Shown: positions 1,323-52,341 of the stretch, one piece after another
How positions within the stretch are numbered: the stretch's first letter is position 1
Layout of the letters: each line of letters starts with the position of its first letter
NCBI GenBank assembly: GCA_022828125.1
Contig: JAJEJD010000012.1
Location: forward strand, 193,309-257,308
DNA: 64,000 bases
Reading direction: 5' to 3'
Origin: a bacterium
GTDB taxonomy: Bacteria; UBA8248
The notes under the pieces: generated by a model
Database searches by the model: none
What the model saw: only the letters and a program-made list of their open reading frames with translations
What the model was told of the DNA's origin: nothing
Program-made: the position numbers and the translations under genes

Positions 1323-1439
1323 GAAAACCAACCCCCCCTTGTCAGGGGGGCAAGAAAAATCAAAACCCCCCTCAGCCCGGCGGGGGCGCATCGCCTTTTT
1401 ATACCCCCCTGACAAGGGGGGGTAGGGGGGGTTGGTTTT
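1323..1439. repeat. MITE-like palindromic element, family R1, copy 1 (left arm lacks the TACCCCCCC unit)
   Basis: Arms AAAACCAACCCCCCCTTGTCAGGGGGG and CCCCCCTGACAAGGGGGGGTAGGGGGGGTTGGTTTT. Internal ...GGGGGCGCATCGCCTTTTTATA hairpin with a T-tract. Confidence 0.8.
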
Positions 1440-1595
1440 ATGGGGTTCCCCTTTCAGGGTGGGTGCCTTTATCCCCTGAGGAGGGGGACTTTTTCAACAA
1501 GTCTCGATTCCCCGGAATTGGACGCCGTCCGGCGCTTCAGGCCGCATAAATAAGCGCCCGCCGGTCGGCGGGCGCTTATTGCTCGATGGCGAGAC

Positions 1596-2201
1596 TCAAG
1601 AAGGCAGGGGCACGTCTTTCCCGTAAATCTGCTCGGACTGCTCTTGCGTCACGGGGTTGCCCTCGGGATCGTGCAAGGGATAGGCCTTGAGTGTGCGCAT
1701 GAAGACCTGGAAACCATAGTGAATCGCCACCATCGCGCCGATCTCCATGATCTGGGCTTCTGAAAAGTGCTTCTTGCCCTCATCGTAGAATTCCTTGTCG
1801 AGTCTCGCGGCGTCCCGGTACATCCAGTAGGAATAGCGGAGCGCCCACTTCTCGGCTTCGGTGAACTGCGGGTCGTTCTCGAAATCTCCGCAGGCGGCCT
1901 CAATGCGTTCTTCCGTCAGGCCCTCTTTTTTCGCCTGCTCGGAGCGAAGGTTCGCAAAGTAGGTGTCCTGCGCGGTTCTGGCGAGCTGGATGCGGATCAT
2001 CTCCTTGAGCTTGTGGTCCACCCCGCCCATGGCGTGGGAGCGGTGCATGGCGTCGTGCAGGTTGGCGGCATAGCCGGGCGCATGGGCCATGATGCGCGAG
2101 AAAAGCGCATCGGGCGCCTGGGTTTCGGCGGTGCGCTCCATGACGCGCTTCCAGTTCTTCTCTTCAATTCCTTCGGGTTCGAGCGGCTCGATAATCGGCA
2201 T
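1596..2201 (-). CDS. carboxymuconolactone decarboxylase (CMD/AhpD-like) family protein, Cys-less at the CxxC position
   Basis: 201 aa ORF with the CMD-family HKLKEMIRIQL block. GGAGG RBS 6 nt upstream of the ATG. Paralogous to the gene immediately upstream. Confidence 0.75.
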   Translation of the reverse strand: MPIIEPLEPEGIEEKNWKRVMERTAETQAPDALFSRIMAHAPGYAANLHDAMHRSHAMGGVDHKLKEMIRIQLARTAQDTYFANLRSEQAKKEGLTEERIEAACGDFENDPQFTEAEKWALRYSYWMYRDAARLDKEFYDEGKKHFSEAQIMEIGAMVAIHYGFQVFMRTLKAYPLHDPEGNPVTQEQSEQIYGKDVPLPS

Positions 2202-2210
2202 GTTCTCCTC

Positions 2211-2873
2211 CTAGCTTCCGCCTGCCTGTTGCGCCTCACCCTCTTCGATCGCGCGAGCGAGCGGGCCGCTCAGGTGCGATACGGGGCAATCGCCGTAGAT
2301 GCGGCGCGATTCCTCCTGACTCACCAGCCGGCCGTCGGGGGTGAACATGGGGTAGAAATCGAGTGTTCTGAAAAAGGTGTGGTAGCCCACGTTGAAGCCG
2401 ATGAAAGAGCCGAGCTCAACAATTTCCTCATCCGAGTAGTGCTCGCGCAGCCTTGCGTAGAAGGCCTCGTCGATCTTCTCGGGCTCCGAATCCATGAGTT
2501 CACTGTATTCAAGCGCGAGTTTTTCGGCCTCGGTGAAAAGCTCGCTCTCGTGCCAGTTGTCGATGCCCTCGTCTATCATCTCTTCCGTCAAGCCTGCCTG
2601 CTTCGCCGAAGCAGAGCGCACGTTACCTCAGTAGTTGCAAAAGGCGCGGCGCGATAGCTGGACGCGGATGATCTCCTTGAGCTTGTGGTCGATGACGCCG
2701 GTGTTGAACACCGTGCCCCACGCGAGGTACATCGATTTCGCCAGATCCTCGTTGTGGCCCTGCATGGCGTGAAAGGCGGGGTCGGGCGCGCGGTGTTTTA
2801 ACGCCTTGTTGACGAACGGCGCCAGCTTCGTCTTCTTCAGATCCTCGATGTCGAGCATGGTGATGTTGGACAT
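2211..2873 (-). CDS. CMD/AhpD-like family protein with an in-frame TGA (2628..2630) in a C-N-Y-U motif; selenoprotein candidate (AhpD-like selenoprotein)
   Basis: ORFs 2628..2873 and 2211..2621 are in the same frame, separated only by TGA plus 2 codons. Joined product is ...HKLKEIIRVQLSRRAFCNY-U-GNVRSASAKQAGLTEEMI.... It aligns to the CMD consensus GCaYC, with Sec at the second Cys. The paralog 1596..2201 has DTYF at this position. Confidence 0.6.
2598..2614 (-). promoter_or_regulatory. hairpin (7 bp stem CUGCUUC/GAAGCAG) 13 nt 3' of the in-frame UGA; candidate bacterial SECIS
   Basis: mRNA reads UGAGGUAACGUGCGCUCUGCUUCGGCGAAGCAGGCAGG; perfect inverted repeat read directly from the sequence. 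Confidence 0.4.
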
Positions 2874-2922
2874 ATGAAATCTCCCTGAAAATGATGTGCG
2901 GGATAAATTGTCGGCTATCGCA

Positions 2923-4290
2923 TCAGGCTCCGCTCTCTGCCTGAACGCGGCGCAGGGCGGTGTCGAGAGCGGAGGCGGCGCGCTCGGCCTCTTCTTCGGT
3001 CAAGACCAGCGGCGGACTGATGGTGACGGTGTTCGAAGGACCTGCGGCGATACCTGCGTTCTTGCCGAAGATCACGCCTTGCTCCTTCGCGTAGGCCAGC
3101 ACCTTCGCCGTGGCCGCCGTGGATAGCGGCGCGCCGTCTTCCTCTATCAACTCCACGCCCCAGATGAGGCCCACGCCCCGCACGTCGCCCACGCAGGGGA
3201 TGTCGGAGAGTTTGCCCAAAAGCCCGCCGAGATATGCGCCCACCTTGGCGCCGCGCGCGGGCAACTCCTCGTCCATCATGATTTCGAGATTCTTGAGCGA
3301 CGCCGCGCAGGCGACGGGGTGTCCGCCGTAGGTGTTTATCTGCAGAAAGCCTGAGTCTCCTTCGGCGTTCAAGGCCTCGAATATCTCGTTCGTGGTCGCC
3401 GTCGCCCCGATGGGCAGATAAGCGCTGCTCAGCCCCTTGGCCATCGTCATGATGTCCGGCTCGATCTCGTACAGATCGGAGGCGAAGAGTTCTCCCGTGC
3501 GCCCGAAGCCGGTGATGACCTCATCCGCGATAAACAAAACGCCGTGGTTCCGGCACACCTCGCGCATGCGTTTCAAATAATCCGCGGGCGGTGGAATCAC
3601 CCCGCCGCCGCCGATGACGGGCTCAGCGATGAACGCCGCCACGGTCTCGGGGTCTTCGTAGCGGATGACCTCATCCAACTCGTCCGCGCACCGGCGGGCG
3701 AGTTCTTCCTCGGTGTCCGCGTTGCTTCGGTAGAAATAGGGCGCGCTCACGTGAATCACGCCCGGCAGAAGCGGCTCGAACATCGCGCGCCGGAGCGTCT
3801 GGCCGGTGAGGCTGGCGCCTCCGATGGTCGCCCCGTGATAGCCCTGGTGGCGGGCGATGATCTTGTATCGCCTCCCGCCGTTCAAGCGGCCATAGGCGCG
3901 GGCCAGCTTGATGGCCGTGTCCACGGCTTCTGAGCCCGAGTTCACGAACCAGACGCGCTCGACCCCTTCGGGCAGCAAGGACGCGAGCCGCTCGGCGAGC
4001 CTCGCCGCGGGGGGATTCACCTGCGTCAGTGGATAGTACGCCAACTCCAGCATCTGCTCGTAGGCCGCCTTGGCCACCTCGTCGCGCCCGTAGCCGATGT
4101 TCACGCACCAAAGCCCCGCCATGGCGTCGATGTATTCCTTGCCGGAGGCGTCCTGGATGGTCGAACCCCTGGCCTTGACCACGACGTCGAGGGGATTTTC
4201 CTCTATCCCGGAATGGTTCATGAGCGGATGCCAGACGTGTTCCTTGTCCATCGCCCGCAAGGATTCGGCTTCGGCTATGGCTGGATTCAT
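2923..4290 (-). CDS. class III (omega) aminotransferase, PLP-dependent
   Basis: Motifs GLWCVNIGYGRDEV, VNSGSEAVDTAIKLAR, ARHQGYHGATIGGASLTGQ. Start set at the internal Met with a GAGGGG RBS (ORF track starts 13 codons earlier, at 4329). Confidence 0.8.
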   Translation of the reverse strand: MNPAIAEAESLRAMDKEHVWHPLMNHSGIEENPLDVVVKARGSTIQDASGKEYIDAMAGLWCVNIGYGRDEVAKAAYEQMLELAYYPLTQVNPPAARLAERLASLLPEGVERVWFVNSGSEAVDTAIKLARAYGRLNGGRRYKIIARHQGYHGATIGGASLTGQTLRRAMFEPLLPGVIHVSAPYFYRSNADTEEELARRCADELDEVIRYEDPETVAAFIAEPVIGGGGVIPPPADYLKRMREVCRNHGVLFIADEVITGFGRTGELFASDLYEIEPDIMTMAKGLSSAYLPIGATATTNEIFEALNAEGDSGFLQINTYGGHPVACAASLKNLEIMMDEELPARGAKVGAYLGGLLGKLSDIPCVGDVRGVGLIWGVELIEEDGAPLSTAATAKVLAYAKEQGVIFGKNAGIAAGPSNTVTISPPLVLTEEEAERAASALDTALRRVQAESGA

Positions 4291-4384
4291 GAGGGTCCCC
4301 TCTCGGGTTTCAGCAATTCGGAATTCCATTGATCGATGCGAAAATCTTAATGCGCAAACGGGTGCGAATCAACCGCCGGGAGAA

Positions 4385-5371
4385 CTAGCCCGGCGTATAT
4401 TCGGGGCTTTCGCTCCTGATCCGAAAGGCCTGGCGCCCGACCCCCTCGATTTCGCCTTCTATCAAGTCGCCCTCCTGGAGATATTCCCCCCACGAGGCGG
4501 CGTTGCCGGCAGGAGAGCCGGTGCCGATGATGTCGCCCGTCCGAAGCGTGGCGATCCCCGATAGATACGATACCTGCTCGGCGACCCGCCAGACCATGTC
4601 GCCCGTGGTGGCGTCTTGTCTCAGTTCGCCGTTCACCCAGAGCTTGAGCCTCAAATCGTGGGGGTCGAGCCCCTCCTCGGGGAGCAGGATGTAGGGGCCG
4701 ATGGGAGCGAAGCCGTCCGGGGCCTTCATGGCGTACCAGTCGATGAACTTTCCCATGTTGAGCGTCGTGCGGTCGCTCATGTCGTTGAACAGGGTGTAAC
4801 CGCCCACGTGATCCATGGCTCTTTCCACCGGAATGTTCTTGCCGCCCTGTCCGATGAGCACGCCGAGTTCGAGTTCGTAGTCGAGCTTTTCCATCGAGGG
4901 ATAGACGGGCACGTCCTCATATGGGCCGCTCACGCACGTGGCGGGCTTCAGGAAACAGTAGAGCGGGAGCTCCTCCTTGAAATCATCCACTTCGGTGCGC
5001 GCCATCTCGGCGGCATGGGCCACATAGTTTCTCGCCATGCAGAACAGCGTGTCCGGCACGACGGGGGGAAGAATCTCGACTTCATCGGGTTCATAGACCA
5101 CCTGCATTCCGTCGAAGCGAGCCGGGTCCTTTTTGCTCCCGTGCGCTTCGAGTGCTTCGAGAGCCTCCTCGGCGAGAGGACGGTTCAGTTCCAGGTCCTC
5201 GATGAACTCCTCGCAATCATGGGGGATCTCGGCCTCGACGCGATCCATGGCCTCCGCCGCTGTTTCCTCATCGAGCGACAGGGCGTAGGCCAGTTTCAGA
5301 TCGGCGATTCTCTCCCTGAACAGGACGCCGATGCGCGCCTCGCCCGCCAGACTGAACGTACAGATTCGCAT
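4385..5371 (-). CDS. fumarylacetoacetate hydrolase (FAH) family protein
   Basis: 328 aa; FAH-family C-terminal fold pattern (GDIIGTGSPAG..., EGVG). GGAGG RBS before the ATG at 5371. Confidence 0.75.
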   Translation of the reverse strand: MRICTFSLAGEARIGVLFRERIADLKLAYALSLDEETAAEAMDRVEAEIPHDCEEFIEDLELNRPLAEEALEALEAHGSKKDPARFDGMQVVYEPDEVEILPPVVPDTLFCMARNYVAHAAEMARTEVDDFKEELPLYCFLKPATCVSGPYEDVPVYPSMEKLDYELELGVLIGQGGKNIPVERAMDHVGGYTLFNDMSDRTTLNMGKFIDWYAMKAPDGFAPIGPYILLPEEGLDPHDLRLKLWVNGELRQDATTGDMVWRVAEQVSYLSGIATLRTGDIIGTGSPAGNAASWGEYLQEGDLIEGEIEGVGRQAFRIRSESPEYTPG

Positions 5372-5510
5372 GAAGGTGAGCCTCCAGGTTTCAAGTCCGC
5401 GACAAGGGGAATCCTACCACAGGGGCGCGGGCGATGCCGCACCGCTCGTAATACAGCGTTCCAGGAAGACCAGCTAGGCTCGAAACGCCAAGACGCGTCC
5501 TGAAGCGATT

Positions 5511-7572: not shown

Positions 7573-7583
7573 GAAAAGCCGAG

Positions 7584-8126: not shown

Positions 8127-8154
8127 GGTTTCCTCCAGTTTTCTCTTGCTAACG

Positions 8155-13367: not shown

Positions 13368-13402
13368 ACGACCTTTCCGGAAAAGCGGATATGCTTTTTC
13401 TG

Positions 13403-31379: not shown

Positions 31380-31514
31380 GTCGGAGCGGGGCGAAGAGGG
31401 AGGTTTCGCCGTAGGGGCGGACCCGTGTGTCCGCCCGCATGTTGTTTTGATGGTGAACCCGTTTGTAGGGGTCGCATATGGGGTTGTAGAAAAAGCCTCC
31501 CTCCTCAGGGGATA

Positions 31515-31707
31515 AAGGCAACCCCCCCTACCCCCCCTTGTCAGGGGGGTAAGAAAAAGCAAAACCCCTTCCACCCGGCGGCGGGCAAGGAAAAGCAAAA
31601 TCCTCTCGGCCCGGCGGCGGGCGTCGTCTTTTTTTCATATCCCGTACTTGCCGGGGGGTCGGTCTTTTTTACCCCCCTGTTAAGGGGGGGTAGGGGGGGT
31701 TGCTTTT
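31515..31707. repeat. MITE-like element family R1, copy 2 (longer, with internal duplication)
   Basis: AAAGGCAACCCCCCCTACCCCCCCTTGTCAGGGGGG ... ACCCCCCTGTTAAGGGGGGGTAGGGGGGGTTGCTTTT. Confidence 0.8.
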
Positions 31708-37341: not shown

Positions 37342-37522
37342 GGAGGGGCCGCCCTCGGTATACGCGTGAGTTCAGGATCGTCATTCCGGCGATTCGGCAG
37401 GGGTAATGGTAGGGACAACCCTCCGTGGTTGTCCTTTGCGGGATAGTTGCCGTCAGGACAGGCACGGAGGCCTGTCCCTACGGGGCGTCCCTCGATACGG
37501 CCCTCGCCGACTTCTCTCGTCG

Positions 37523-37648: not shown

Positions 37649-37721
37649 AGCGGAGAGGGGCGTCCCCTCTACCCCATGAAAAGGGGGCTTTTTCAATTAT
37701 CCCTACCTCGTCGGAATCGAC

Positions 37722-40076
37722 CTACCAGCGCAGCGAGCCGCGAAGCGCCAGGCCGTGGTCGACGTCATCCACACCTTCGCGGCGCTCGCCCTCCAGGCTC
37801 ATGCTCAAGCGTTCGCCGAGACGGAATCGCCCGCCCGCGCGGTAGCTCTGCGCCGCCTCCGAGACCGACACCCCGCCATAAGGGGTGAGGAGACCGCCCA
37901 TGCCGTCCAGACCGTAGCCCACCTCCGCGTCCAAGCGCGCGCCCGGTTCGAATTCCCCGCTTCCAGTCAGGCCGGCAGCGCTGCGCCCGCTCCAGAGCTG
38001 CTCCGGTCCGCCCGCCGGGGCGCCCCAGGACGAACCCAGCCGCATGGACAAGCCGCGTCCCCCCTCGCCCGGAGCGAGGCGCAACGAGCCGCTCACGCCC
38101 CATTCCTCATAATCGCTGTCCGCATGTGCGAGCAGCCCCCGGGCGCTCACCTGTACCGTGAAGCCCGAACCCGCGTAGCGCAGCCCGCCGCCGACCTCGA
38201 CGCCGCCTCCCGTCTCGGCGTCGCCGCCGTCGTAGCGCAGACCCACCTCGATGGAGGGCGTCAGGCTCGCGCCCGAGGCGAACCCGAACTCACGCGAGGC
38301 TTCGAGCGCGAGGCGCAGGCGGCTCGTCTCCGCCTCTACCTCCGCGAAACTTTCCGTCTCATCGGAACTCGTCCACGTCATCAGCGCATCCGAGCGAAGC
38401 GCGAGTTCGAAATCTCCCTTGCTCACGGCGGGCAGCAGCACGCCGCGCGCGCCCAGCGACGCCATGTTCATCTCGATGTCGGCTTGGGCGGCGCTACTTC
38501 CCGCCGTGGTGAGCGTCAACTCGCCGCGCCCGTGGCCGAGCACTCCCCAGGCCGAGAGGCGCTCGCTGAAACGATAGCGCGCATAGGGATAGGCGCCGGT
38601 GAGCGTGCTCTCCAGATCGCCGCCGCAGCCCGAAGCGCAGCTTCCGCCGATGCGGAACTCACCCTCGCCCGCGCTACGCGAGAGCGCCACGCCGGCCAGC
38701 CACCGCTCGCGTTCGAAATCGAAGCCCAGCGTCGCGGTGGTGACATCGCCGTCGAGCGCGAGCGCGCCCTCTTTGGCGTCGAAACCCGAACGCGCGGCGC
38801 CTCCCCAGAACGACCAGCCCCCGCCGGCGTCCGCGCCTTCCGCGGAGGCCAGGTGAAAGGAACTCGCGAGCAGCAACTCGCTCATCGACATCTCGCGCCC
38901 GGCGAAAACCTCCCCGCTCCGCTCATCGAGAGAACCCTCCGCGAGGCGCGCGGCGGAATCCCCATCCGCCAAAGGGAGGGGGGAGCCTGCCAAATCGATA
39001 TCCTGACCGCCGAGCGTGAGTCGAGTGCCCGGCGCTCCGCGCATCCTGTCGCCGATGGCCCCGGTGACGTGCTCCGCCGCCGCCCGCCCGAAGCGCGCGA
39101 GCCACGCCTCCTGCGGCGCGGGCGCGTCATCCGCCGTGAGCAGGTTCGTCTCCGTCACCGTCCCCGTGTTCATCCACTCGACGATGGCCCCCACCGTCTT
39201 GCGCTCCTTGCCCAGGAAACCGTGCGCTGTCTGCGCCTGGCAAACACTGGGGCTTATCTGCGAATGCCCTCCGCTCACGGAGACGAACTCCTTGCGCGGG
39301 CTGTTCGTGATCGCGTTGAATGTAGTCTGCGCATCTGAAAACTGCGTACCGGGGCACAAGTCGTCCGTGTGATGCACCATCAGGACGGGGCCTCTGATTG
39401 CGCTTGCATAAGACACTATCGACCCCGCGCTTGCGGTGAGAACGTAGCCCGCGACTCCCGGATGCGTGATCACGGAGGCCAGATATGCGACGGACGTCGA
39501 GCCGTTGCTCGTGCCGATGAGGTACACCTCGCGCGCGCCCTCGCTCACCAGAAAATCCACGGCAGCGCGCACGTCCGCATGATGCTGACTCGACCACCTG
39601 AATGAAAATTCCATGCCTTCGCTCCTGTCCGAAGGAGCGTCGATGATGGCCGTGACGAAGCCCGCCTCGGCGAAGAGTGCTGAGCTTCTCACCAGAAAAT
39701 TGCCGCTAAGCCTGTGGTCCCTCTCCCGCGTAATCGGCGTTCCCGCGCCGCCCATGAAGAGGATGACGGCCTTGTTCCCTGCATTCCTCGCCCTGGCGAG
39801 CAGAAGACGCTGCCGCACGCCCTGCCGCGTGGGAAGACGCACGTCCTCCCAAGGGAGCGAGGCGACGTTGCCGACGCCTCTGGGGTGGGGCAGTACGTTG
39901 ATCGGTTTCCGTACGATTGCCGGGGTCAGCGGCCGGCCCGGCATGGTGGCGGGCGGGGCGCCCACGGTCGGGCCGCCGCCCCCACCGCCTCCGCAGCCCG
40001 CCGGCCCCAGCGCCAGAAGCGCCGCCAGCGTGAAAGCGGACAGTTTGTTCGTGGACGTGTCTTTGCGGAAAAACAC
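37722..40076 (-). CDS. autotransporter outer-membrane protein with alpha/beta hydrolase (esterase-like) passenger; lipoprotein-type signal
   Basis: LAALLALGPAGCGG signal, a passenger with an a/b-hydrolase pattern, a Gly/Ala-rich C-terminal beta-barrel ending ...LRGSLRW. Confidence 0.65.
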   Translation of the reverse strand: MFFRKDTSTNKLSAFTLAALLALGPAGCGGGGGGGPTVGAPPATMPGRPLTPAIVRKPINVLPHPRGVGNVASLPWEDVRLPTRQGVRQRLLLARARNAGNKAVILFMGGAGTPITRERDHRLSGNFLVRSSALFAEAGFVTAIIDAPSDRSEGMEFSFRWSSQHHADVRAAVDFLVSEGAREVYLIGTSNGSTSVAYLASVITHPGVAGYVLTASAGSIVSYASAIRGPVLMVHHTDDLCPGTQFSDAQTTFNAITNSPRKEFVSVSGGHSQISPSVCQAQTAHGFLGKERKTVGAIVEWMNTGTVTETNLLTADDAPAPQEAWLARFGRAAAEHVTGAIGDRMRGAPGTRLTLGGQDIDLAGSPLPLADGDSAARLAEGSLDERSGEVFAGREMSMSELLLASSFHLASAEGADAGGGWSFWGGAARSGFDAKEGALALDGDVTTATLGFDFERERWLAGVALSRSAGEGEFRIGGSCASGCGGDLESTLTGAYPYARYRFSERLSAWGVLGHGRGELTLTTAGSSAAQADIEMNMASLGARGVLLPAVSKGDFELALRSDALMTWTSSDETESFAEVEAETSRLRLALEASREFGFASGASLTPSIEVGLRYDGGDAETGGGVEVGGGLRYAGSGFTVQVSARGLLAHADSDYEEWGVSGSLRLAPGEGGRGLSMRLGSSWGAPAGGPEQLWSGRSAAGLTGSGEFEPGARLDAEVGYGLDGMGGLLTPYGGVSVSEAAQSYRAGGRFRLGERLSMSLEGERREGVDDVDHGLALRGSLRW

Positions 40077-40202
40077 AGGTCAAGTCCTCCTCGTCGGAAC
40101 ATCGCAAAACCAAACGAATGATGAGCTTCGCGTCATATGGCAGGGACAGGTTGCGGCCTGTCCCTACAGGGATTGTTGAAAAAATGTCCCTTGCCAGGGG
40201 AC

Positions 40203-40347
40203 AAAGGCAACCCCCCCTACCCCCCCTTGTCAGGGGGGTCTTTTTGTTGCTCCCCCTGTCGGGGGACCTTTTTCTTTTTACCACCCCCACCGTCAGAGCA
40301 TTGCTTTTTCATACCCCCCTGACAAGGGGGGGTAGGGGGGGTTGGTT
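40203..40347. repeat. MITE-like element family R1, copy 4 (divergent core)
   Basis: AAAGGCAACCCCCCCTACCCCCCCTTGTCAGGGGGG ... CCCCCCTGACAAGGGGGGGTAGGGGGGGTTGGTTTT. Confidence 0.8.
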
Positions 40348-40559
40348 TTCAAGGCGAGGAGGCGGACAAGGGCAGGACAGCCCCGAGGAAGGGCCGCCCC
40401 TACGCAGGACGATATGGTTTCGTGGCAGGAACGATCTCCTTTCGAGGTCATTCCCGCCCTGCTCGATTAACCCTCCAGGGGACAGGTCGCGACCTGTCCC
40501 TACAAAATCATCATCCTCCCCGCTCGGAACAATTCCCCCCTCTTCGGGGTTGTTGCAAA

Positions 40560-41446: not shown

Positions 41447-41844
41447 TTTGCCCTCCTTATGAGAGGCGGGAGGCGGCACCCTTCCATTCCATGATAGTTT
41501 CCCCGATGCTTTCATGCGGGGGGAGCGGTGTCAATGAGGGGTCGAACCCGACCGATGAGGGAGGGTTCGCCGACCGGGGAGGGAGGGGCTGCCGACCGAT
41601 GCAGGGCTGTTGAAAAAGCCCCCTTCTCAGACGGGTAGAAGCGATGCCCCCGACGAGGTTTTTTCGACAACCCCCTCAAGTGGGGAGTGAAATACGACCC
41701 CGCAATTCCCCGCATTTGCCGCCGGGGGACTTTCGCGTCGATGGGATATGCTGGAGAGGCCGTCCGTCGGCCTTCGGTTTTTCAGGCGGCGGAAGGGGCG
41801 TTGCCCGCAGGAATCGGAGGGCCGCCCGGACGAGACGCGGAAGG

Positions 41845-41940: not shown

Positions 41941-42197
41941 TGACGCTTTTGCAGTGCGGCGCAGGAGCATTCTGCCATGACCCGCCGCGCCCGCGATGAC
42001 CGCAAATGCGGGGAAATGCGCATTCCGCGCAAAAGGGCACCGAACGGCCCATATGATGCGATTTTGCCTCATCGCGGCGTTGTGCTAGATTCAATCCATC
42101 CTCTCGAATGAAAACTCAGGCGTCAGGCGAATGCCGCGAGAGGACGAGCAGTTCCAGGTCAACGCACGGATCCGACAACGGAAACCCGAGGTTACAC

Positions 42198-43100
42198 GTG
42201 GACCGAACCGAGGCCCGAAAACCCATTGATAATCAAGAGGTAAAGCGCACAGCCCGCGAGCTGGGCGCCGACCTCGCGGGGGTCGCATCGGCGGAGGATT
42301 TCGCGGAAGCGCAGCCGGGCTGCCGCCCCAGGGACTTGTTCAACATGGCGAACAGCGTCGTCGTGGTCGCCAAGCGCGTCCCCTTCGCCGCGGCCACGCC
42401 CTATCCCAGCATCGGCGCGATGGAGTTCGGTGAATACATCCCCGAGAATTTCCTGAACGAAGCCTGCTATCGCCTCTCGCTGTTTCTCGAAGATATGGGC
42501 TGGCTCTCGGGCGCCACCCCGTGCGGGCGCGACATCACGAGCTTCCGCGTGGAAGAAGAAGGCGCCGAACCCAGGGTCTTCCTCCAGGGCTCCTTCGACT
42601 TGCGGCTCGCGGCGGTCAAGGCCGGTCTCGGGCATATCGGCGCCAATAACTGCCTGATAACGCAGGAGTACGGCTCTCGCGTCCGCCTGGGCGCGGTGTT
42701 CACCGAGGCGAAGCTCGAACCCGACCCGCCCAACCAGGTCGGCGCGATCCCCGAGTTCTGCCATGAGTGCGGCTTTCGCTGCGTGAAGGCCTGCCCCGCG
42801 AACGCGCTGCCCGGCGACGGCACGGTGGATCACTACCGCTGCATGGTCATCCGGCCGGACCTGGTCGCGCCGGAAAAAGCCCTGGCCCACTTCAAGAAAC
42901 TCTTCCGGGGCAAGCCCATGATCATGGCGGCCAAGGGCCTCTCCTACACCGACAGCCCGCCGCATCCATGCAGCACCTGCATCGCGCTCTGCCCGATGGA
43001 TCAGGGCCGCGATTTCGCGCATAAACCCTTTCACCGCGAATCCTGGACCGATGAAGACGCGCTCAAGGTCATCGATCCGGCCCTGCTGGAGAATCCCTGA
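42198..43100 (+). CDS. QueG-like (epoxyqueuosine reductase family) 4Fe-4S protein, paralog 1
   Basis: GANNCLITQEYGSRVRLGAVFTEAKLEPDPP block plus Cys cluster CHECGFRCVKACP. GTG start aligned to the paralog. Confidence 0.5.
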   Translation: MDRTEARKPIDNQEVKRTARELGADLAGVASAEDFAEAQPGCRPRDLFNMANSVVVVAKRVPFAAATPYPSIGAMEFGEYIPENFLNEACYRLSLFLEDMGWLSGATPCGRDITSFRVEEEGAEPRVFLQGSFDLRLAAVKAGLGHIGANNCLITQEYGSRVRLGAVFTEAKLEPDPPNQVGAIPEFCHECGFRCVKACPANALPGDGTVDHYRCMVIRPDLVAPEKALAHFKKLFRGKPMIMAAKGLSYTDSPPHPCSTCIALCPMDQGRDFAHKPFHRESWTDEDALKVIDPALLENP

Positions 43101-43101
43101 A

Positions 43102-43971
43102 ATGGATAACGGCAAAGGCGCCGGAATTACCTCAGGCGACGTCAAGGCGCAGGCCCGTGAATTCGGCGCGGACCTCGTCAACATTTCCTCGTGCGAGGGC
43201 TACGAGAAAGCGCTCCCCGGCTGCAAGCCCCATGACCTGGTGAAGGACGCCAGGAGCGTCGTCGTCTTCGCGCGCCGGATGCCCTTCGGCAACGCGACGC
43301 CCCGACCCTCGGTGGGTTATCTGGAATTCGGCTATTACGGGCACGAGGCCTGGATCAACAAGCTCTCATACCGCCTGGCGCTCTGGTTGGAGGACGAGGG
43401 ACACATGGCGCTGCCCACGCCTGCCGGACGGGACATCCCCTCGCTCCGCATCCTTCGAGAAGGCGCGGAACCGGAAGTCTTCATGCAGGGTTCTTTCGAT
43501 CTCAGGCTCGCCGCGGTGAACGCGGGCATGGGCGAGATCGGCGTGAACAACAACCTCATCACCGCCGAATACGGCTCGCGTCTGAGACTCGGAGCGGTCG
43601 TCACGACGGCCGCGCTCGAAGCGGACCCGCCCCAAAAATACGGCGTGGTTCCCGATTTCTGCGTGGAGTGCGGCTACAAGTGCATCAAGCCCTGCCCGGC
43701 GGGTGCGCTGCCCGGAGACGGCGCGGTGGATCACTACAAGTGCATGGTGATGTATCCCCAGAAAGTTTCATCGGAAAAAGCCGTCGACGTCTTCAAGACG
43801 CGCTACGGCTACCCCGAACTCCAGCTCGCCGGACGAATGATGGCCTTCACCGAGAACGCGCCGCACATCTGCGCGACCTGCATCACCCTGTGCCCCATGG
43901 ACGAAGCGCGCCGCGTCAAGGAGAAGGCGAACGGCGGCGGGGGCGGTCAACCACTTCCAGTCGTGCCATAA
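43102..43971 (+). CDS. QueG-like 4Fe-4S protein, paralog 2 (tandem)
   Basis: Roughly 55-60% identical to the preceding gene (GVNNNLITAEYGSRLRLGAVVTTAALEADPP; CVECGYKCIKPCP). Confidence 0.5.
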   Translation: MDNGKGAGITSGDVKAQAREFGADLVNISSCEGYEKALPGCKPHDLVKDARSVVVFARRMPFGNATPRPSVGYLEFGYYGHEAWINKLSYRLALWLEDEGHMALPTPAGRDIPSLRILREGAEPEVFMQGSFDLRLAAVNAGMGEIGVNNNLITAEYGSRLRLGAVVTTAALEADPPQKYGVVPDFCVECGYKCIKPCPAGALPGDGAVDHYKCMVMYPQKVSSEKAVDVFKTRYGYPELQLAGRMMAFTENAPHICATCITLCPMDEARRVKEKANGGGGGQPLPVVP

Positions 43972-44160: not shown

Positions 44161-44236
44161 TAACTTTTCCCTCTCCGGCTTTTTCAACAGCCCCTATGGG
44201 GCTTGTTGAAAAACCCCCTTGAAAGGGAAATCCCAT

Positions 44237-44360
44237 AAAGGCAACCCCCCCTACCCCCCCTTGTCAGGGGGGCAAGAAAAAGCAACCCCCCCTCAGCCCG
44301 GCGGGGGCGCATCGCCTTTTTATACCCCCCTGACAAGGGGGGGTAGGGGGGGTTGGTTTT
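44237..44360. repeat. MITE-like element family R1, copy 5
   Basis: Near-identical to copy 1, including the core CAAGAAAAAGCAACCCCCCCTCAGCCCGGCGGGGGCGCATCGCCTTTTTATA. Confidence 0.85.
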
Positions 44361-44459: not shown

Positions 44460-45545
44460 CTACTGCCTCGTGGCGACGAAGCCGCCCTTGATTCTGGGCG
44501 CCTCGAACACCCCACCGACCGTGTTCGGGCTCGTCCCCGTAGTGCCCTGGTGGCGGAAAGCGCCGTTGATCTTGCGGCCCCCGGCCGTCGAGCTGAAGGC
44601 GCCGCTCGAATCGATCGACAGGCCGGACCAGGTCTGGTCCGGGTACGTCGAGGGGACTGCGGCGCCCGACTCGATTTTCACAGCCCGGGAGGACTTCAGG
44701 TTCGTGAGAGAAACGCCCGCGCTTCTGGTCGGGAGATTGACGGTGACGCTGGCGTCGCCGCCGATCTCGAAGCCTCTGGTCACCCACTGGGCAGGGTCGT
44801 TCTCGAAGGCGATCACCTTGCCCGTCCAGGTCGCGCTCCCCGTCCCGGTGGGCTGCACGCCGGCGCCGGGCGCCTGAAGGTGCGCCTCGACCAGGAAGAA
44901 ATCGTTGGTGATATCATGGCCGCTCTCCTCAAGTATTTTCTTAAGCTGCACGGAAAACAGCCGCTTCCCGGTCTCTTGCGGCACCCGGGCGCGGATATGG
45001 ACCTTCATGTCGCCGGCGGCGCCGGGCGGATAGGTCATCCACAGGTCGTCGACGTTCATACTGTAAAAAACGAACTCGTCACCGTCGGAGTTCGCGTCCG
45101 TGTACTTGAGGTTCCAATATCGGGTTCCGCCTTTTCTTATCCGCGCCTGAATGTCCGGCCGGAGGCTCATGGGGGGGTTGAAAGAGTTCAGGTTGATCGT
45201 TTTCGCCGTCGCACCGGCGGGAAAGCCGGGGGGAGTGCCGGTACCGACCGAAGTCGATTTGGCCGTCACACGCGGTGTCCGCGGCGCGACCTGCAGCTGC
45301 GAGACCTGCAGCTGCGAGACCCTCGGGAAGACCGGCGGCAGGGCGGGCGCCGGCTGGGGCGTGGCGGCAGGCCGTGCCTCGAGCGCGGCGGCAGGCTGCG
45401 GAGCGGGCCGGCTCATCACGGGTTGCGGGAGACTGAGTCCCCCGCCCCCTCCCCCGCAGGCGGTGAGAAACAACGCCAGCAGCGCGACGGAAGCGAAGCC
45501 CCCCGCCGGCGACGGTCTGTGGAACAGGGTATCCAGCGTTTTCAT
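44460..45545 (-). CDS. hypothetical lipoprotein with a low-complexity Pro/Ala-rich linker
   Basis: Lipobox LFLTACGGGG. Internal 15 bp tandem duplication gives SQLQVSQLQV. Confidence 0.5.
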   Translation of the reverse strand: MKTLDTLFHRPSPAGGFASVALLALFLTACGGGGGGLSLPQPVMSRPAPQPAAALEARPAATPQPAPALPPVFPRVSQLQVSQLQVAPRTPRVTAKSTSVGTGTPPGFPAGATAKTINLNSFNPPMSLRPDIQARIRKGGTRYWNLKYTDANSDGDEFVFYSMNVDDLWMTYPPGAAGDMKVHIRARVPQETGKRLFSVQLKKILEESGHDITNDFFLVEAHLQAPGAGVQPTGTGSATWTGKVIAFENDPAQWVTRGFEIGGDASVTVNLPTRSAGVSLTNLKSSRAVKIESGAAVPSTYPDQTWSGLSIDSSGAFSSTAGGRKINGAFRHQGTTGTSPNTVGGVFEAPRIKGGFVATRQ

Positions 45546-45995: not shown

Positions 45996-46253
45996 GCGTG
46001 TTTTTTCGGCGCCGGGAAGGGCGGTTTCGACGCCGGGGCGTCCGGATCGGCCCAGGGAGGCGTATCGGGAGCTTGTCTTAAGCCTGTCGAGGGGGACGCG
46101 GGAAAACAGCTTTCCCGCCCCCGCTCGCCGTGAACCCTCCTTCCCTGAGGTTGTTGAAAAACCCCTGCTTTCGTCATTCTGCGTATAGAGCCAACCGGGG
46201 AAAGAGGAGACAACATTTCCCCCTTGAAGAGTGCCAACCAAACACTCCCCCCT

Positions 46254-46590
46254 TGAGGAGGCTGTTGAAAAAGTCACCCTTGGTCGGAATTGACCACCGC
46301 CGTCATTCCGGCGAAAGCCGGAATCCATTTTGACTTTTCACCGGGCGGGGCGATCACGACCTTTTTGTCGCGCGGCGCCGGGATGCGGAACCCAGAGAAT
46401 TCGCCTTTCGTTTTTGTGTTCGATTCCGATCCTCCCCGACCGGGCGTAAAGACGTCCGAACGAAGAGGCGAAAAGGCAAAGGCGAAAATGGATTCCGGCT
46501 TTCGCCGGAATGACGGCCAAAACCCGAAACCGGGCGGAGGCGCAGGTGTCACTTCCTCCTCGATGGACTTTTTCAACAAGCCCCCTCAAG
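46254..46590. repeat. composite mosaic repeat region: GTTGAAAAAG hairpin module, an inverted pair of 32 bp TCATTCCGGCGAAAGCCGGAATCC arms (46299..46331 and 46485..46518), and a GGCCAAAACCCGAAACCGGGCGGAGGCGCAGG module
   Basis: The modules recur in other intergenic regions (52136..52215, 61855..62000, 1240..1320, 50755..50790). Confidence 0.75.
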
Positions 46591-46754
46591 GGGGAAGTGA
46601 ATTCCCTCTCTCATGAATTGCGCCCGATCCTCAAGGGAGAGTGAAAAAACCCCAAGCATGAAGGGGTGATTCTGGAAAGGGATTTATGAATTGACCGGCA
46701 AGAAAAACTCGTCAACTTGAGTATATAATTCCCTTTCTTTCTCTGGAGCCTCTC

Positions 46755-47987: not shown

Positions 47988-48224
47988 AGCGACGCCCCCG
48001 AAACCCATGGGCGATGAAATTCGAAACAATTTCTTGTTCATCAATCCCGACAGGGAAGGAAGAATTCCCTCTCTCTTGAGGGAGTTTTTCAACAACTCCA
48101 TGATCGACAAGCTATTACTCGAACGCGGGCGCAGATTACCACCCGGAACGCGAATGGTCCGGTCTTGCAAGACTTGCAAAGCATACGGCCTTGCCCTATA
48201 TTCATTCCCAAAAGGGGATGAATT

Positions 48225-48815
48225 ATGCCTATCACGGCCGATTTGACGATTCGAGAAACCGCCGCCCTCTCGGGAGTGCCTCGGACGACGATTGAAAAAA
48301 CCGTGGAAGCCCGCGTCTTGCGGCCCCTCGCCGGCCCGGTCCGTCTCCGTGGTGGCACGACGCGCTATCTCCCAATCCGCGCCGTAGTCTATTTCCACGC
48401 CCTGAAGGCAGCCAACCTTACGGACCTCCCTTTGCGCCATAAGCGGGCGATTTGGACGAATATGATTCGGATCGAGCCCATGCAACTCGAGACAATCGAA
48501 TTTACGCCCGGCGCGACGCTCGATCTCGATCGCCTAGCGGCGGACGCTCTGTGTAAGGCTGAACGATACCGAAAAGCCCGAGATCGATACATCACATCAG
48601 ATGAGAATATCCTCGGCGGCACACCGGTTATCGCCGGGACACGGTTGACGGTTTACGCGATTCTTGGGCGGCTGCAGGACGGAGACAGCGTCGATGATCT
48701 CGTAGAGGACTATCCTGAAATCCCGCGCGAAGCGTTCGAGGCCGCCGAGATATACGCCAAAACTCATCCTCTTCGAGGACGCCCGTCCGGCAGACCCTGG
48801 CGAAACGTGGCCTGA
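48225..48815 (+). CDS. DUF433 domain protein (putative antitoxin-like partner)
   Basis: C-terminal ILGGTPVIAGTRLTVYAILGRLQDGDSVDDLVEDYPEI is the DUF433 signature. Confidence 0.6.
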   Translation: MPITADLTIRETAALSGVPRTTIEKTVEARVLRPLAGPVRLRGGTTRYLPIRAVVYFHALKAANLTDLPLRHKRAIWTNMIRIEPMQLETIEFTPGATLDLDRLAADALCKAERYRKARDRYITSDENILGGTPVIAGTRLTVYAILGRLQDGDSVDDLVEDYPEIPREAFEAAEIYAKTHPLRGRPSGRPWRNVA

Positions 48816-48832
48816 GCGGCGGTTGTAGCCGG

Positions 48833-49222
48833 GTGATGCGGATGTTTCTTGATGAGTGTCTGTCCCCCAGAATTGCCCAAACCCTGAATGCCGAGGGGGA
48901 TCATGTTGCTCTTCATCCGCGCGATTTCGGTGGGCTGGGTGCGTCGGATCACCACGTATTGGCCAGATGTATCGAGCAGGACCTCGTACTCGTGACGGCC
49001 AACGCGCGCGATTTCCGCGCCCTTGCCGCCGCACGGGACGTGCATCCCGGCCTCGTCATCTTGCCGAGTGTGGGCCGAGAACGTTCGGAGGCGCTGCTGC
49101 GTGGCGCAATCGCTTTCTTGTCCCAACACGGCGACCCGATGGACGTCATAGTCAACCATGTTCTCGAAGTATCGGCAGAGGCGGAGATGACGCTCTCGAT
49201 GTTGCCGACGCAAGAGCAGTGA
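48833..49222 (+). CDS. DUF5615 (PIN-like) domain protein (putative toxin-like partner)
   Basis: MFLDECLSPRIAQTL...VLVTANARDF matches the DUF5615/Mut7-C-like pattern. Starts 18 bp after the DUF433 gene. Confidence 0.55.
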   Translation: MMRMFLDECLSPRIAQTLNAEGDHVALHPRDFGGLGASDHHVLARCIEQDLVLVTANARDFRALAAARDVHPGLVILPSVGRERSEALLRGAIAFLSQHGDPMDVIVNHVLEVSAEAEMTLSMLPTQEQ

Positions 49223-49322
49223 GCGTTCGACAACGCCTCCGCCATACACTTCAATTTGAAGAAGGGGGGTCAAACCCTGCCGGTTTAGTCGAAATCACAC
49301 CCACGAATGGAGAATCACTCGA

Positions 49323-50501
49323 CTACAATGGTTCCTCCGCCTCGGGTTTCCAGTCCGGCGCTTCGCCGAAGGCGGCGGCGACCAGGGAGCGGGCGCGGAT
49401 TCCCGGGGGATTCCCCTCCGGCTGGAAGTTGGTGCAGTAGCCGAAGGCCATGTTCCGCTCGCGGTCACAGAACGTGAACGCCCCGCCGGAGCCGCCGTGG
49501 CCGAAGGCCTTCATGTTGGGTCCCATCGGCGAGTTGGGCGGGCAGTTGTGCATGAAACCGAGACCCATCCGCCGGGGCGCGCCTGTCATCGCGCAAAACC
49601 CCTCCCACTGAACCTTGGAGAGCCGCTCCACCGTTTCGGGCCGGAGCAGGCGGACGCCGCCGATTTCGCCATTATTGGCCAGCATCGCGTACACCCGCGC
49701 GATGCCGCGGGCGTTCCCGTGACCGCCCGAGGAGGGGTTCTCGCCCACGCGGTTCTCGCGGCAGTTCACCAGATCGACCCCTATCGGCCGGCTCCCCCAC
49801 GCCCTGTGCAGCATCGTGCCGGGCTTTTCTCCCAACTCCCAGAATTTGTTCTCGGGATTGCGGTGCACGGGCGCGACACGCGCGAGTTCTTCCTCGTTCA
49901 GCCCGACGTTGTAGTCCGCGCCGAGCGGGCCCGTAATCTCCTCGCGGATGAAGTCGCGGATCCGCTTGCCGCTCACCCGGCGGACGATCTCGCCGTGGAT
50001 GAACCCGAAGTTGATGGAATTGTAGGCGCCCTTCGAACCCGCGGGCCAGGCGGGTTCCTGGGCTGCGATGGCGGCCACCTGAGCCGGGTAGTCGAAAAAA
50101 TCTCCCGGCTTGGCCGCGTCGCAGAAGATGACGCCGCACTGATGGGAGATGGTGTGCCGGACGAGTATGTTTTCCTTGCCCTTCTGGGCGAACTCCGGCC
50201 AGTACCGCGCCACGGGCTCCTCCAGCGAAACCAGCCCCCGGTCCACGAGCATGTGGACGGAGAGCGCGCTCATGCTCTTGGCGATGGAACTCATGAGCAC
50301 GATGGTATCTTCCGTCCAGGGCTGCGTGCGGGCTTCGTCGCGGTGGCCTCCCCAGAGGTCCACGACTTTCTCGCCGTCCCTGTACACGCAGACGGCGGCC
50401 CCTAACTCGCTCCGGCTCGCGAAGTTCTCCCGGAACGTCTCTTCCACAGTCGAGTAATCGCTGTGGCAATGCCCTTCCACCTGAATATCGGCAATACTCA
50501 T
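49323..50501 (-). CDS. beta-lactamase-related serine hydrolase (class C/EstB-like)
   Basis: SIAKS (SxxK) motif, YxN-region equivalent, about 390 aa. Confidence 0.7.
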   Translation of the reverse strand: MSIADIQVEGHCHSDYSTVEETFRENFASRSELGAAVCVYRDGEKVVDLWGGHRDEARTQPWTEDTIVLMSSIAKSMSALSVHMLVDRGLVSLEEPVARYWPEFAQKGKENILVRHTISHQCGVIFCDAAKPGDFFDYPAQVAAIAAQEPAWPAGSKGAYNSINFGFIHGEIVRRVSGKRIRDFIREEITGPLGADYNVGLNEEELARVAPVHRNPENKFWELGEKPGTMLHRAWGSRPIGVDLVNCRENRVGENPSSGGHGNARGIARVYAMLANNGEIGGVRLLRPETVERLSKVQWEGFCAMTGAPRRMGLGFMHNCPPNSPMGPNMKAFGHGGSGGAFTFCDRERNMAFGYCTNFQPEGNPPGIRARSLVAAAFGEAPDWKPEAEEPL

Positions 50502-50805
50502 CTTTTCCCTGCGAGTTGAAGAAAATCAAATTTTCCATGTGTGCTTGACGTTTGAAGCACCCGGCTTCCCTTACCGCCTCACCTGATGAATCCATCGCCA
50601 TACGGATTCAGAAGCCGTCACCGATATGTTCATATTTGTCTTGGTAGCGGTGTAAGACTATTACGAATTCATCCAGCAAAACAAATGGAGAATGCAGGTA
50701 TATTGATCTGGAAACAGCCGATTTTCCGGGAATGGAAATAACCGACGGAACCGCCCACTGGGGGGCTGTTGAAAAAGTCCTGTCCGACCATCGAGATTGT
50801 TCGCC

Positions 50806-50904
50806 GTAGCAGGGACAGGCCTTTGCGCCTGTCCGAGGCCTCCGTGCCTGTCCTGCTCTTCGTGGTTGTCCTTCGTCAGGACAGGCACGGAGGCCTGTCC
50901 CTAC
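50806..50904. repeat. long inverted repeat of family R4 (GTAGGGACAGGCC...GGCCTGTCCCTAC)
   Basis: The right arm CAGGACAGGCACGGAGGCCTGTCCCTAC (50877..50904) is identical to 37444..37471. The left arm is its reverse complement with a 17 bp insertion. Smaller R4 units lie at 40138..40170, 40468..40500 and 62017..62050. Confidence 0.8.
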
Positions 50905-50982
50905 AAAACCATCACGTCTGCGCCGCGTGAACCTCCTTGCCGACGAGACCGCCCTCTGACGCCGGCTTTCACCCCCGAAGGA

Positions 50983-51861
50983 CTATTGCATATCCTTCCC
51001 TTCGTATACCTCGATGACGCGGCTGGCGTCGTCCTTTCCCCAGCCGGCGGCCTCGGCCCGCTCGAACATCTTGCGCGCCGCGGGAACGACGGCGAGTTCG
51101 ACACCGTGTTCCTCGGCAAGCTTGATCGCGAGGCCCATGTCCTTCACGAATATTTCCACCGCCCCGCGTGGGGCGAAATCCCGCTCGAACATTCTGGGGG
51201 CGGTCTGTGAGAGCATGGAACCCTGCACGGAACCCTTCGAGAGGCAATGCTCCATGATCTCATGCGAGAGCCCCGCGCGCTCGCCCACCACGATCAACTC
51301 GGCGAACAGCGCCGTGCACGAGTTGACGAAAAGGTTGGTCACGACTTTCATGGTGGCCCCGGTTCCGCTCGGGCCCGTGTGGGCCGCATCCGCCGCCAGC
51401 GGATCGAGAATCGGCTTTACCCGCTCGAAGACTTCTTTCCTGCCGCCCACCATGAAGGAAATGGTTCGCGTATCGACCCGGTTGTGGGAACCCGATATCG
51501 GCGCATCCAGCATCTCGACCCCCTCGGCGGCGAGCCGCTCAGCCAGGCCGGCCTGAAAGGAGGGCTCCATGGTGCTCATTTCGACGTGAATGAGGCCCTT
51601 CTTTCCGGCAGCGACGATGCCTTTCGGTCCGAACGTGTTCTCCTCGATGTGCTCGGGTTTCAAGAGAATGCTGAACGTGATGTCGCTTTGCTCGGCTACC
51701 TCCTTCGCCGAAGCAGCGGGGCGCCCGCCTTCCTCCTCCAGCATCTTCATCCGCGCGGGGTCGATGTCGTAGCCGACGATCTCGTGGCCGTCCGCCATCA
51801 TCTGCCGCGAGAGCGGGAGTCCCATCTTTCCCAGTCCGATCATTCCCAGCTTTTCACCCAT
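50983..51861 (-). CDS. NAD(P)-dependent oxidoreductase, 3-hydroxyisobutyrate/tartronate-semialdehyde reductase family
   Basis: MIGLGKMG dinucleotide motif, the catalytic Lys region GSGATMKVVTN. Confidence 0.8.
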   Translation of the reverse strand: MGEKLGMIGLGKMGLPLSRQMMADGHEIVGYDIDPARMKMLEEEGGRPAASAKEVAEQSDITFSILLKPEHIEENTFGPKGIVAAGKKGLIHVEMSTMEPSFQAGLAERLAAEGVEMLDAPISGSHNRVDTRTISFMVGGRKEVFERVKPILDPLAADAAHTGPSGTGATMKVVTNLFVNSCTALFAELIVVGERAGLSHEIMEHCLSKGSVQGSMLSQTAPRMFERDFAPRGAVEIFVKDMGLAIKLAEEHGVELAVVPAARKMFERAEAAGWGKDDASRVIEVYEGKDMQ

Positions 51862-52221
51862 GATTTTCTCCTGTACTCAAAAAATCAGTGTCTTTCGATT
51901 ATCGGAAATTTGCGCGGCGACCGAGGACGCGCCGGCAAATCACCGGAGAACGAATTCAATCCACCATCAGCTTGCCCGGAGCCTCGAACACGGGCTCAGG
52001 GGCGGCGGGCATGCGGTTGACGCGGGCGCCAACCGCCTGTCTGAAGGCGTGGGCGACTACAGCGGCTGCGATCCTGACGCTTCGGGCATATCGTTGATGA
52101 GACTGCCACAGCCGGGCGAGCGCCCCCATCTTTCCCGCCTATTGGGGCTGTTGAAAAAGTCATCCCTGGTCGCAATGACGGCCAAAACCCGAACCCGGGC
52201 GGAGGCGCAAGCTGTCTCCTT

Positions 52222-52341
52222 GAAAACCAACCCCCCTACCCCCCTTGTCAGGGGGCAAGAAAAAGCAAAACCCTCTCGGCTCGGAGGGGGCGCATCGCCT
52301 TTTTATACCCCCCTGACAAGGGGGGGTAGGGGGGGTTGCCT
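52222..52341. repeat. MITE-like element family R1, copy 6
   Basis: GAAAACCAACCCCCCTACCCCCCTTGTCAGGGGG ... CCCCCCTGACAAGGGGGGGTAGGGGGGGTTGCCTTT, then ATCCCCTG. Confidence 0.8.

Follow-up and report, generated by a model that had tools for sequence, protein, structure and literature searches.

We analyzed a 64-kb stretch of bacterial DNA (contig JAJEJD010000012.1, positions 193,309 to 257,308; hereafter the window) in which an initial annotation had described six intergenic copies of a repeat resembling a MITE (a miniature transposable element with inverted repeats), with arms rich in G/C homopolymers, and we compared it with related loci and contigs, to which we refer by L-numbers. All six were confirmed as copies of a ~124-bp G/C-run palindrome, with coordinates shifted by no more than 2-3 bp, and each is made up of a left arm, a core, and a reverse-complement arm. 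The copies are as follows (coordinates count the conserved 8-bp outer motif AAA[AG][GC]CAA):

1324..1439, no strand: copy 1; left arm short by one C7TA unit, core 'forward'
31514..31707, no strand: copy 2; core tandemly duplicated, right arm with TGTTAA instead of TGACAA
37523..37646, no strand: copy 3; core reversed relative to copies 1, 5, and 6
40203..40349, no strand: copy 4; both arms exact, core different and longer
44237..44360, no strand: copy 5; both arms exact, consensus core
52223..52343, no strand: copy 6; inside a composite MITE, C runs of the left arm shortened

The arm follows the consensus AAA[AG][GC]CAA-C7-TA-C7-TTGTCA-G6 (36 bp), and the two arms enclose a core of ~52 bp. Nine of the 12 arms are exact, in line with the near-perfect reverse complementarity over ~36 bp first reported, and their boundary lies 8 bp outside the outer C7 run. 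The inner arm motif, a 19-mer (CCCCCCCTTGTCAGGGGGG, up to 3 mismatches), matched the window 12 times in six inverted pairs, against 0.01 matches expected from dinucleotide-preserving shuffles. Copies 1, 5, and 6 have the same core and copy 3 holds its reverse complement, because that element lies in the opposite orientation; the initial annotation had thus correctly described the cores as partly conserved and as inverted in copy 3 relative to copies 1 and 5. Every arm has a hairpin of its own (C6-7/TTGTCA/G6), and the whole palindrome is predicted to fold as RNA into an uninterrupted stem of 31-33 bp (-95 to -110 kcal/mol, z-scores of -7 to -9). A search of the whole window against Rfam at the gathering threshold gave no match.

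All six copies lie outside the genes called by a method based on GC content at third codon positions, which reproduces the open reading frames (ORFs) with Pfam support. They are therefore intergenic, as had been noted, and mechanically drawn ORFs do cross them, which agrees with the earlier remark that such ORFs are spurious. Copies 2, 3, and 5 are found between convergent genes and copies 1, 4, and 6 between genes on the same strand; none is found between divergent genes, and all six are downstream of the 3' end of at least one gene.

Copy 6 is directly at the stop codon of a TctA gene, where it forms part of a larger element bounded by a 15-bp motif that we call the F-box:

52139..52143, no strand: left target-site duplication (TSD) CTATT, 5 bp, of the composite holding copy 6
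52144..52377, no strand: complete composite MITE, 234 bp, missing from five strains with an identical TctA protein
52144-52158: F-box GGGGCTGTTGAAAAA, left end of the composite
52363-52377: F-box TTTTTCAACAGCCCC, right end of the composite
52378..52382, no strand: right TSD CTATT, holding the TctA stop codon
52378-53907, minus strand: TctA gene

From left to right, the composite consists of the F-box GGGGCTGTTGAAAAA, module M4, palindrome copy 6, module M1, and the F-box TTTTTCAACAGCCCC. We compared the site among ten contigs that carry a TctA protein identical to that of the window (alignment A10). In five of these the site is empty and reads GCCGAATAGGCGGG, the sequence directly after the TctA gene being ...GCCGAATAGGCGGGG..., whereas in the window and two other contigs it is filled, with 234 bp inserted and AATAG duplicated. 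What was inserted is therefore the composite, which carries the palindrome as cargo. The presence/absence polymorphism that had been proposed for comparison with related genomes thus exists at copy 6, but what is inserted is a 234-bp composite with ends other than the arms and a 5-bp duplication. For copies 1-5, no empty site was found among contigs with identical neighbouring proteins, which showed the same arrangement or ended at the repeat. Within the orthologous copies 6 of the same alignment, the homopolymer runs are full-length in L104 (C6/G7/G7) and shorter in L101 and the window (C5/G6/G6), a difference that reflects either slipped-strand variation or homopolymer sequencing error.

The ends of the composite lead to a known family of insertion sequences (ISs). 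The 15-bp ends at 52144-52377 are identical to those of IS1182-family elements at three related loci (L019, L086, and L088), where the elements measure 1510-1522 bp and run from GGGGCTGTTGAAAAA to its complement. These elements encode a 481-aa protein that matches the NCBIfam model NF033551 ('IS1182 family transposase', 346.7 bits at a cutoff of 270) as well as Pfam DUF772, DDE_Tnp_1_6, and DDE_Tnp_1. Among the matches listed, the IS1182-family transposase is the sole recurrent one near the repeats (6 loci in the genome set and 3 in the metagenome set), and it is present in related metagenome-assembled genomes (MAGs) at L012, L017, L019, L086, L088, L121, L148, and L150. That the window holds no transposase, as initially stated, agrees with a tblastn search using two transposases from related loci, which found no homologue in its 64 kb. 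The complete IS copies are each flanked by a perfect 5-bp duplication (TTGTC, GACAA, or CAAGG). Among 75 pairs of F-box ends, 5-bp duplications were perfect in 9 and had one mismatch in 5, compared with 0-1 perfect duplications in offset controls, and the duplicated pairs range from 105-bp derivatives to the full IS. Five of these 14 duplication-flanked elements hold the palindrome: window copy 6, with a perfect duplication, and the elements in L006, L013, L029, and L079, with one mismatch each.

The sequences beyond the arms are a handful of recurring modules rather than unique sequence. Nearly all occurrences of four of these modules are next to an arm (M1, 18/18; M2, 30/32; M3, 8/8; M5, 7/8), and M1, M2, M3, and M5 each begin at their outer end with the F-box motif GGGGCTGTTGAAAAA(G). 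An outward-facing F-box (up to 2 mismatches) is present within 130 bp on at least one side of 71 of 83 palindromes and on both sides of 32; in the control, F-boxes in the wrong orientation were found on at least one side of 18 palindromes and on both sides of 0. M1 resembles the subterminal 40 bp of the IS1182-family elements, with an F-box, a short hairpin, and (G)TA(T/A)(G/A)G. An F-box adjoins all six copies of the window, and only copy 6 has one at both ends. Those beside the other five copies are:

1489..1503, minus strand: F-box-like repeat CTTTTTCAACAAGTC, facing outward, 50 bp to the right of copy 1; two short hairpin modules, M2-like and M1, lie between it and the arm
31480..31494, plus strand: F-box-like repeat GGGGTTGTAGAAAAA, left of copy 2, followed by hairpin module M1
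37688..37697, minus strand: degenerate F-box CTTTTTCAAT, right of copy 3, marking the outer end of M3
40169..40183, plus strand: F-box-like repeat GGGATTGTTGAAAAA, left of copy 4, followed by M1
44199..44213, plus strand: F-box-like repeat GGGCTTGTTGAAAAA, left of copy 5, followed by M2; it abuts an opposite-facing solo F-box end at 44180-44194

The window also contains F-box-bounded miniature elements that are free of the palindrome, at 61891-61995, 41603-41674, and 46258-46583. The first of these is 105 bp long, has a perfect 5-bp duplication (TTGAG), and sits in the loop of a CACTCCCC...GGGG hairpin.

Based on these findings, we consider it likely that the six repeats are the palindromic cargo of composite miniature transposable elements derived from the IS1182 family. 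Such a composite has IS1182-type terminal inverted repeats at its outside, then a subterminal hairpin module, and then the palindrome, and an IS1182-family DDE transposase supplied in trans would move it as a whole. Transposition would yield a 5-bp target duplication and would favour the loops of short C-run/G-run hairpins. The palindrome arms themselves offer such a hairpin and are thus struck by the IS and by other small elements, and repeated hits would lead to nested, decaying mosaics in intergenic DNA. Copies that lack one end would formerly have had it, and copies 1-5 of the window, which now have a single transposon end, are probably immobile relics. The original MITE-like reading stands insofar as the repeats occur dispersed in multiple copies, have no transposase, and are associated with mobile DNA, but the 36-bp arms are not the transposition termini.

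The target sites follow a common pattern. In every clear case, a short G/C hairpin (CGCC-GAATA-GGCG at copy 6) has the duplicated 5 bp in its loop. IS1182-family elements are found inside the arm-hairpin loop itself (C7-TTGTCA-G6) in L019, L086, and L121, with TTGTC or GACAA as the TSD; a 165-bp derivative occupies the same arm loop in L037 with a perfect TTGTC duplication, and the left junction in L150 is that of L121. Another palindrome whose loop is targeted, CACTCCCCCC-TTGA-GGGGGGAGTG, is hit in L088, in L015, and in the window by the 105-bp element. With arm hairpins among the targets, the IS and its derivatives therefore insert into hairpins that the derivatives carry, which explains the mosaics, the copies with a single F-box, and the variable interiors at orthologous sites. 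At orthologous intergenic sites of genomes that are 90-96% identical, the outer frame is common and the interiors differ. REP-type (repetitive extragenic palindromic) sequences are known as targets of ISs from five families, namely IS3, IS110, IS4, IS256, and IS5 (PMC1525189). Going one step further, we tentatively suggest that the IS1182-family element and the palindrome could form a self-reinforcing pair, in which the IS uses the arm loop as a harmless intergenic landing pad and its miniatures seed new pads, although we regard this as less probable than the alternative that they do not.

An element of another family has inserted into a palindrome as well. In L091 (4818-6320), an IS256-family element (NCBIfam NF033543) lies in the palindrome core, flanked by a 9-bp duplication (TTTTTCTTG). 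We considered this element as the autonomous parent of the repeats and rejected it, given that it has ends of its own and that its 9-bp duplication shows it to have been inserted into the core. A second IS256-family copy abuts an arm in L010 (~1-1070), and a possible IS256-family end remnant (GCGTAACTC) is located beside an arm in L053.

The copies are not confined to the window. We scanned for the exact pattern in one genome per species, with 8-kb blocks returned, and because retrieval required one exact arm the copy numbers given here are lower bounds and arm conservation is overestimated. The pattern is carried by at least 98 such blocks from at least 15 assemblies, five of which are chromosome-level and 13 of which are Nitrospinota/Nitrospinaceae or unclassified 'bacterium' MAGs. 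The retrieved blocks contain at least 144 elements, 53 of them within 235 kb of isolate jk18x34bins.43, and a metagenome scan added 82 further contigs. The isolate names of several hosts look like sponge-metagenome bins, so that we presume a sponge origin from the names, the records shown giving no host. The TctA protein of the window is unchanged on 22 contigs (metagenome assemblies NGUY21, KELL22, and PANK22) and on GCA_022820345.1. Two occurrences lie elsewhere: a single exact arm in L046 (4126-4153), an AT-rich contig of a Peribacteria MAG (44% GC) from an unrelated phylum, and a complete element in L024, from a Binatia MAG. For both, we favour mis-binning or a chimeric contig over genuine spread as the more likely cause. 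A lone match on a viral contig (L116) was rejected as a family member, being a look-alike hairpin with a different loop and context. A literature search on this palindrome family in sponge symbionts or Nitrospinota found no description; the family is an undescribed MITE family and a fairly ordinary kind of bacterial junk DNA.

We next consider the limits of the palindrome itself, using an arm-anchored alignment of 85 elements. Conservation falls from ~1.4 to ~0.18 bits: of the eight positions beyond the outer C7 run, most have an information content of 1.3-1.8 bits and the two variable ones (R and S) 0.8-0.9 bits, the ninth has 0.18 bits, and complementarity between the two flanks drops from ~0.8 to ~0.2 at the same 8-bp boundary. 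This sharp drop in both measures means that the palindrome has a consistent boundary, so that the flanks are not of the irregular kind that would have spoken for conserved regulatory structures over mobile repeats. The arms do not behave as the terminal inverted repeats for which they had been taken: no direct repeats of 3-9 bp flanking the arms exceeded the permutation background in the 85 elements (offsets of 0-24 bp), the 'empty' target AAARSCAA-TTGSYTTT was not found in 0.78 Mb, and no orthologous comparison gave a case of palindrome-only presence/absence. The arm-to-arm length has its mode at 106-108 bp, with minor classes at ~124, 131-141, and 160-167 bp that have duplicated or altered cores and a class of 236-357 bp in which a further small palindromic element is nested in the core. 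A fixed relation between core orientation and flank type was considered and rejected, the two being only loosely tied (18 vs 10). Core flipping by recombination between the inverted arms would be a sufficient, if putative, explanation.

Several of these observations weigh against the idea of an IS1182-derived composite. A demonstrated empty site together with a perfect duplication is available for only one palindrome-bearing element, with four more having a one-mismatch duplication. One or both transposon ends are missing within 130 bp in 51 of the 83 palindromes, and the window has no IS1182-family gene by tblastn. Different flank modules join the arms at an identical, sharp boundary, and this boundary together with the loose core orientation would also fit a discrete module that recombines or moves independently. 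Finally, in one orthologous pair, the arms and core differ at 2/108 positions and the subterminal module at 10/66 (Fisher p = 0.001). Passive cargo is therefore insufficient as an explanation for the better conservation of the arms and core, and the conservation contrast, the constant junction, and the loose orientation keep two alternatives alive.

The first alternative, which we regard as possible though clearly the less probable account, is that the palindrome is retained for a host function and that mobility merely delivers it, the candidate functions being two-way intrinsic termination or the stabilisation of mRNA ends, protein binding, and the formation of a G-quadruplex (G4)/i-motif. 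The long, uninterrupted stem with its strong folding energy, the position of all six window copies downstream of a gene 3' end, the insertion of copy 6 directly at the TctA stop codon, and the better conservation of arms and core in the orthologous pair are consistent with this. A terminator pattern scan, which judges shape only, flags the arm with its T-rich tail (TTGCCTTTAT or TTGCTTTTC) on both strands; the palindrome has A-rich and T-rich tails on both strands, the latter reading TTGGTTTT or TTGCCTTT. The scan also flags the GGCGG...TCGCC hairpin of the core followed by TTTTTATA. The initial annotation had placed such a hairpin and T run in each core; the mini-hairpin before a T run does recur in 46 of 52 distinct family members, but it is a weak stem of 4-7 bp without covariation, the RNAalifold consensus retaining only the A5:T5 extension of the large palindrome. 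With regard to gene context, 100 element-bearing intergenic regions comprise 26 convergent, 59 tandem, and 15 divergent ones, compared with 75/255/84 overall, so that divergent (promoter) regions are weakly but not significantly under-represented (chi-square ~4.9, 2 df). A sigma-70 promoter scan of 31-45 kb found nothing inside the elements. A role as two-way terminator is thus plausible from the predicted shape, with the gene context lending weak support, and the lack of covariation in the core, the 15 divergent regions, and the non-significant bias weigh against it. If there is an effect on the host, the most likely side-effect would be that the long hairpin acts as a two-way transcription stop or RNA stabiliser.

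The G/C runs could provide a different function. G7TAG7 conforms to the G-quadruplex pattern G3N1G3N2G3N1G3. Of the 16 canonical G4 motifs (G3+N1-7 x4) in the window, 11 lie in the arms, and each element has one G4 motif and one C-rich i-motif candidate per strand. Judging from their sequence, the G7TAG7/C7TAC7 arms, which are conserved across species, may be kept as G-quadruplex/i-motif or protein-binding structures. Against retention for any host function, strains with and without copy 6 coexist, and many copies are broken by ISs or other insertions or lack an arm. Moreover, high conservation could also result from recent spread or gene conversion between copies, and retrieval was biased toward exact arms.

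A second alternative is that the palindrome is a replicative unit of its own, a REPIN-like doublet copied without target duplication by a dedicated single-copy enzyme (RAYT-type or similar), and that its association with IS1182 ends arises solely by mutual insertion. We consider this improbable, more so than a host function. Two inverted palindromic repeats with a spacer that fold into a long hairpin or clover do fit the definition of a REPIN (PMC3116915). The sharp and constant outer boundary, the arms without target duplication, and the constancy of the arms around a varying interior (a single, double, or other core, or a nested element) would be expected, as would the IS1182-family elements that do insert into the arms and the orthologous sites in genomes ~94% identical where the palindrome has differing flank modules. 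However, we found no credible Y1/RAYT-like ORF in 1.45 Mb around the elements, where the best hit from tblastn with E. coli RAYT and IS200 TnpA queries had an E value of 0.11 and ran antisense to a transporter gene that contains it; a RAYT occurs once per genome, and the DNA searched covers a small part of each genome. The arms bracket only inserted IS elements and, between two separate degenerate copies, one transporter. Palindrome-only presence/absence was not seen, and M1, M2, M3, and M5 are essentially never found without the palindrome, which fits a composite unit better than chance nesting. The arms do contain GTAG, but on the G-rich strand it follows the arm hairpin on the 3' side (G7-TAG-G6). 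In classical REPs, a conserved GTAG/GTGG head is reportedly 5' of the hairpin (Nunvar et al.). That G/C homopolymers gave rise to the repeats artificially, during assembly or sequencing, can be practically dismissed: homopolymer lengths do differ between orthologous copies and short contigs do end at repeats, but the same elements are present in unique flanked contexts in at least 15 independent assemblies, including chromosome-level MAGs, and on 82 metagenome contigs. We therefore retain the IS1182-derived composite as the likely account of how the family moves.

Regarding the neighbouring genes, two earlier labels need comment. The gene beside copies 3 and 4 is a 784-aa ORF (37722-40076, minus strand) with only a weak alpha/beta-hydrolase Pfam hit, so that the autotransporter proposed for it finds no support in Pfam, and the 'QueG-like pair' ahead of copy 5 (42108-43971, plus strand) has only sub-threshold 4Fe-4S Pfam hits. 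Between 43930 and 46754, the window spans 2.8 kb where the corresponding site of isolate jk18x34bins.43 (L054, 7171-7645) spans 474 bp between flanking genes that are 92-96% identical. The 474 bp are one composite palindrome-bearing MITE; the surplus of the window includes copy 5, a 361-aa ORF (44460-45545, minus strand, no Pfam hit), and the F-box element at 46258-46583. This difference is a gene-sized indel bounded by repeat clusters. In L103 (4530-4659), which has the identical TctA, the downstream gene for an NAD-binding dehydrogenase is missing and a beta-lactamase-family gene directly follows TctA. Same-strain short-read contigs (L111, L112, L113, and L115) stop at or beside repeats, from which we conclude that the family fragments assemblies. 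The window further contains short extragenic palindromes of at least three other families, which often adjoin the G/C-run palindromes: GGACAGG-N-CCTGTCC (at 37456, 40144, 40480, 50813, 50879, and 62029), GGGCGG-N-CCGCCC (22939, 27793, 31415, and 31744), and ATTCCGG-N-CCGGAAT (27835, 46305, and 46492). Some window palindromes of other families are classical GTAG...CTAC REP-like units.

The family fills much intergenic space in a clade of uncultured sponge-symbiont Nitrospinota. As the repeats break short-read assemblies and spawn spurious ORF calls, their true boundaries will aid annotation and assembly, and strains can be marked by insertion polymorphisms, for instance that at the TctA stop codon. 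Gene-sized indels at repeat clusters between related strains indicate that the repeats mark genome plasticity. Through the arms, many genes also have strong hairpin and G4 motifs downstream of them on both strands, with possible effects on transcript ends. If true, the targeting loop between the IS and the palindrome would be an example of a mobile element that creates a safe niche for its own insertion.

Compared with known systems, the composites are similar to IS5/IS1182-type MITEs in having IS-identical ends and a fixed 5-bp duplication, in being non-coding and 105-350 bp long, and in being high-copy, intergenic, and insertion polymorphic between strains. They differ in that the interior, more than a deleted IS, holds a near-perfect palindrome of 124 bp that has no relation to the interior of the IS, is more conserved than the transposon ends, and contains the preferred target hairpin of the IS. 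With the Correia (NEMIS) elements of Neisseria they have in common that they are small, abundant intergenic inverted repeats that can form long RNA hairpins. For Correia and similar functional MITEs, an influence on transcript ends has been suggested or demonstrated. The ends of Correia elements serve as transposition termini, with TA as the duplication; in sequence they are unrelated to the family described here, in which the long inverted repeat is internal. REPINs and REP-BIME elements (PMC3116915, PMC3333891, and PMC2817692) likewise consist of two inverted hairpin repeats with a short spacer and a long-hairpin or clover fold, have arms without duplication, are extragenic, occur in tens to hundreds of copies, and form mosaics with few linker modules. 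In our case, however, no RAYT was found near the palindromes, the demonstrated mobile unit has DDE-type ends and a duplication, and the 36-bp arms are rich in homopolymers (C7TAC7), with GTAG on the other side of the hairpin. Lastly, the REP-targeting ISs (IS1397, ISKpn1, IS621, ISPpu9/10, ISPsy8, and ISRm22; PMC1525189) also insert at an exact point of a palindrome and generate a short duplication, but the IS described here belongs to the IS1182 family, and the loop that it targets is carried by its own miniature derivatives.

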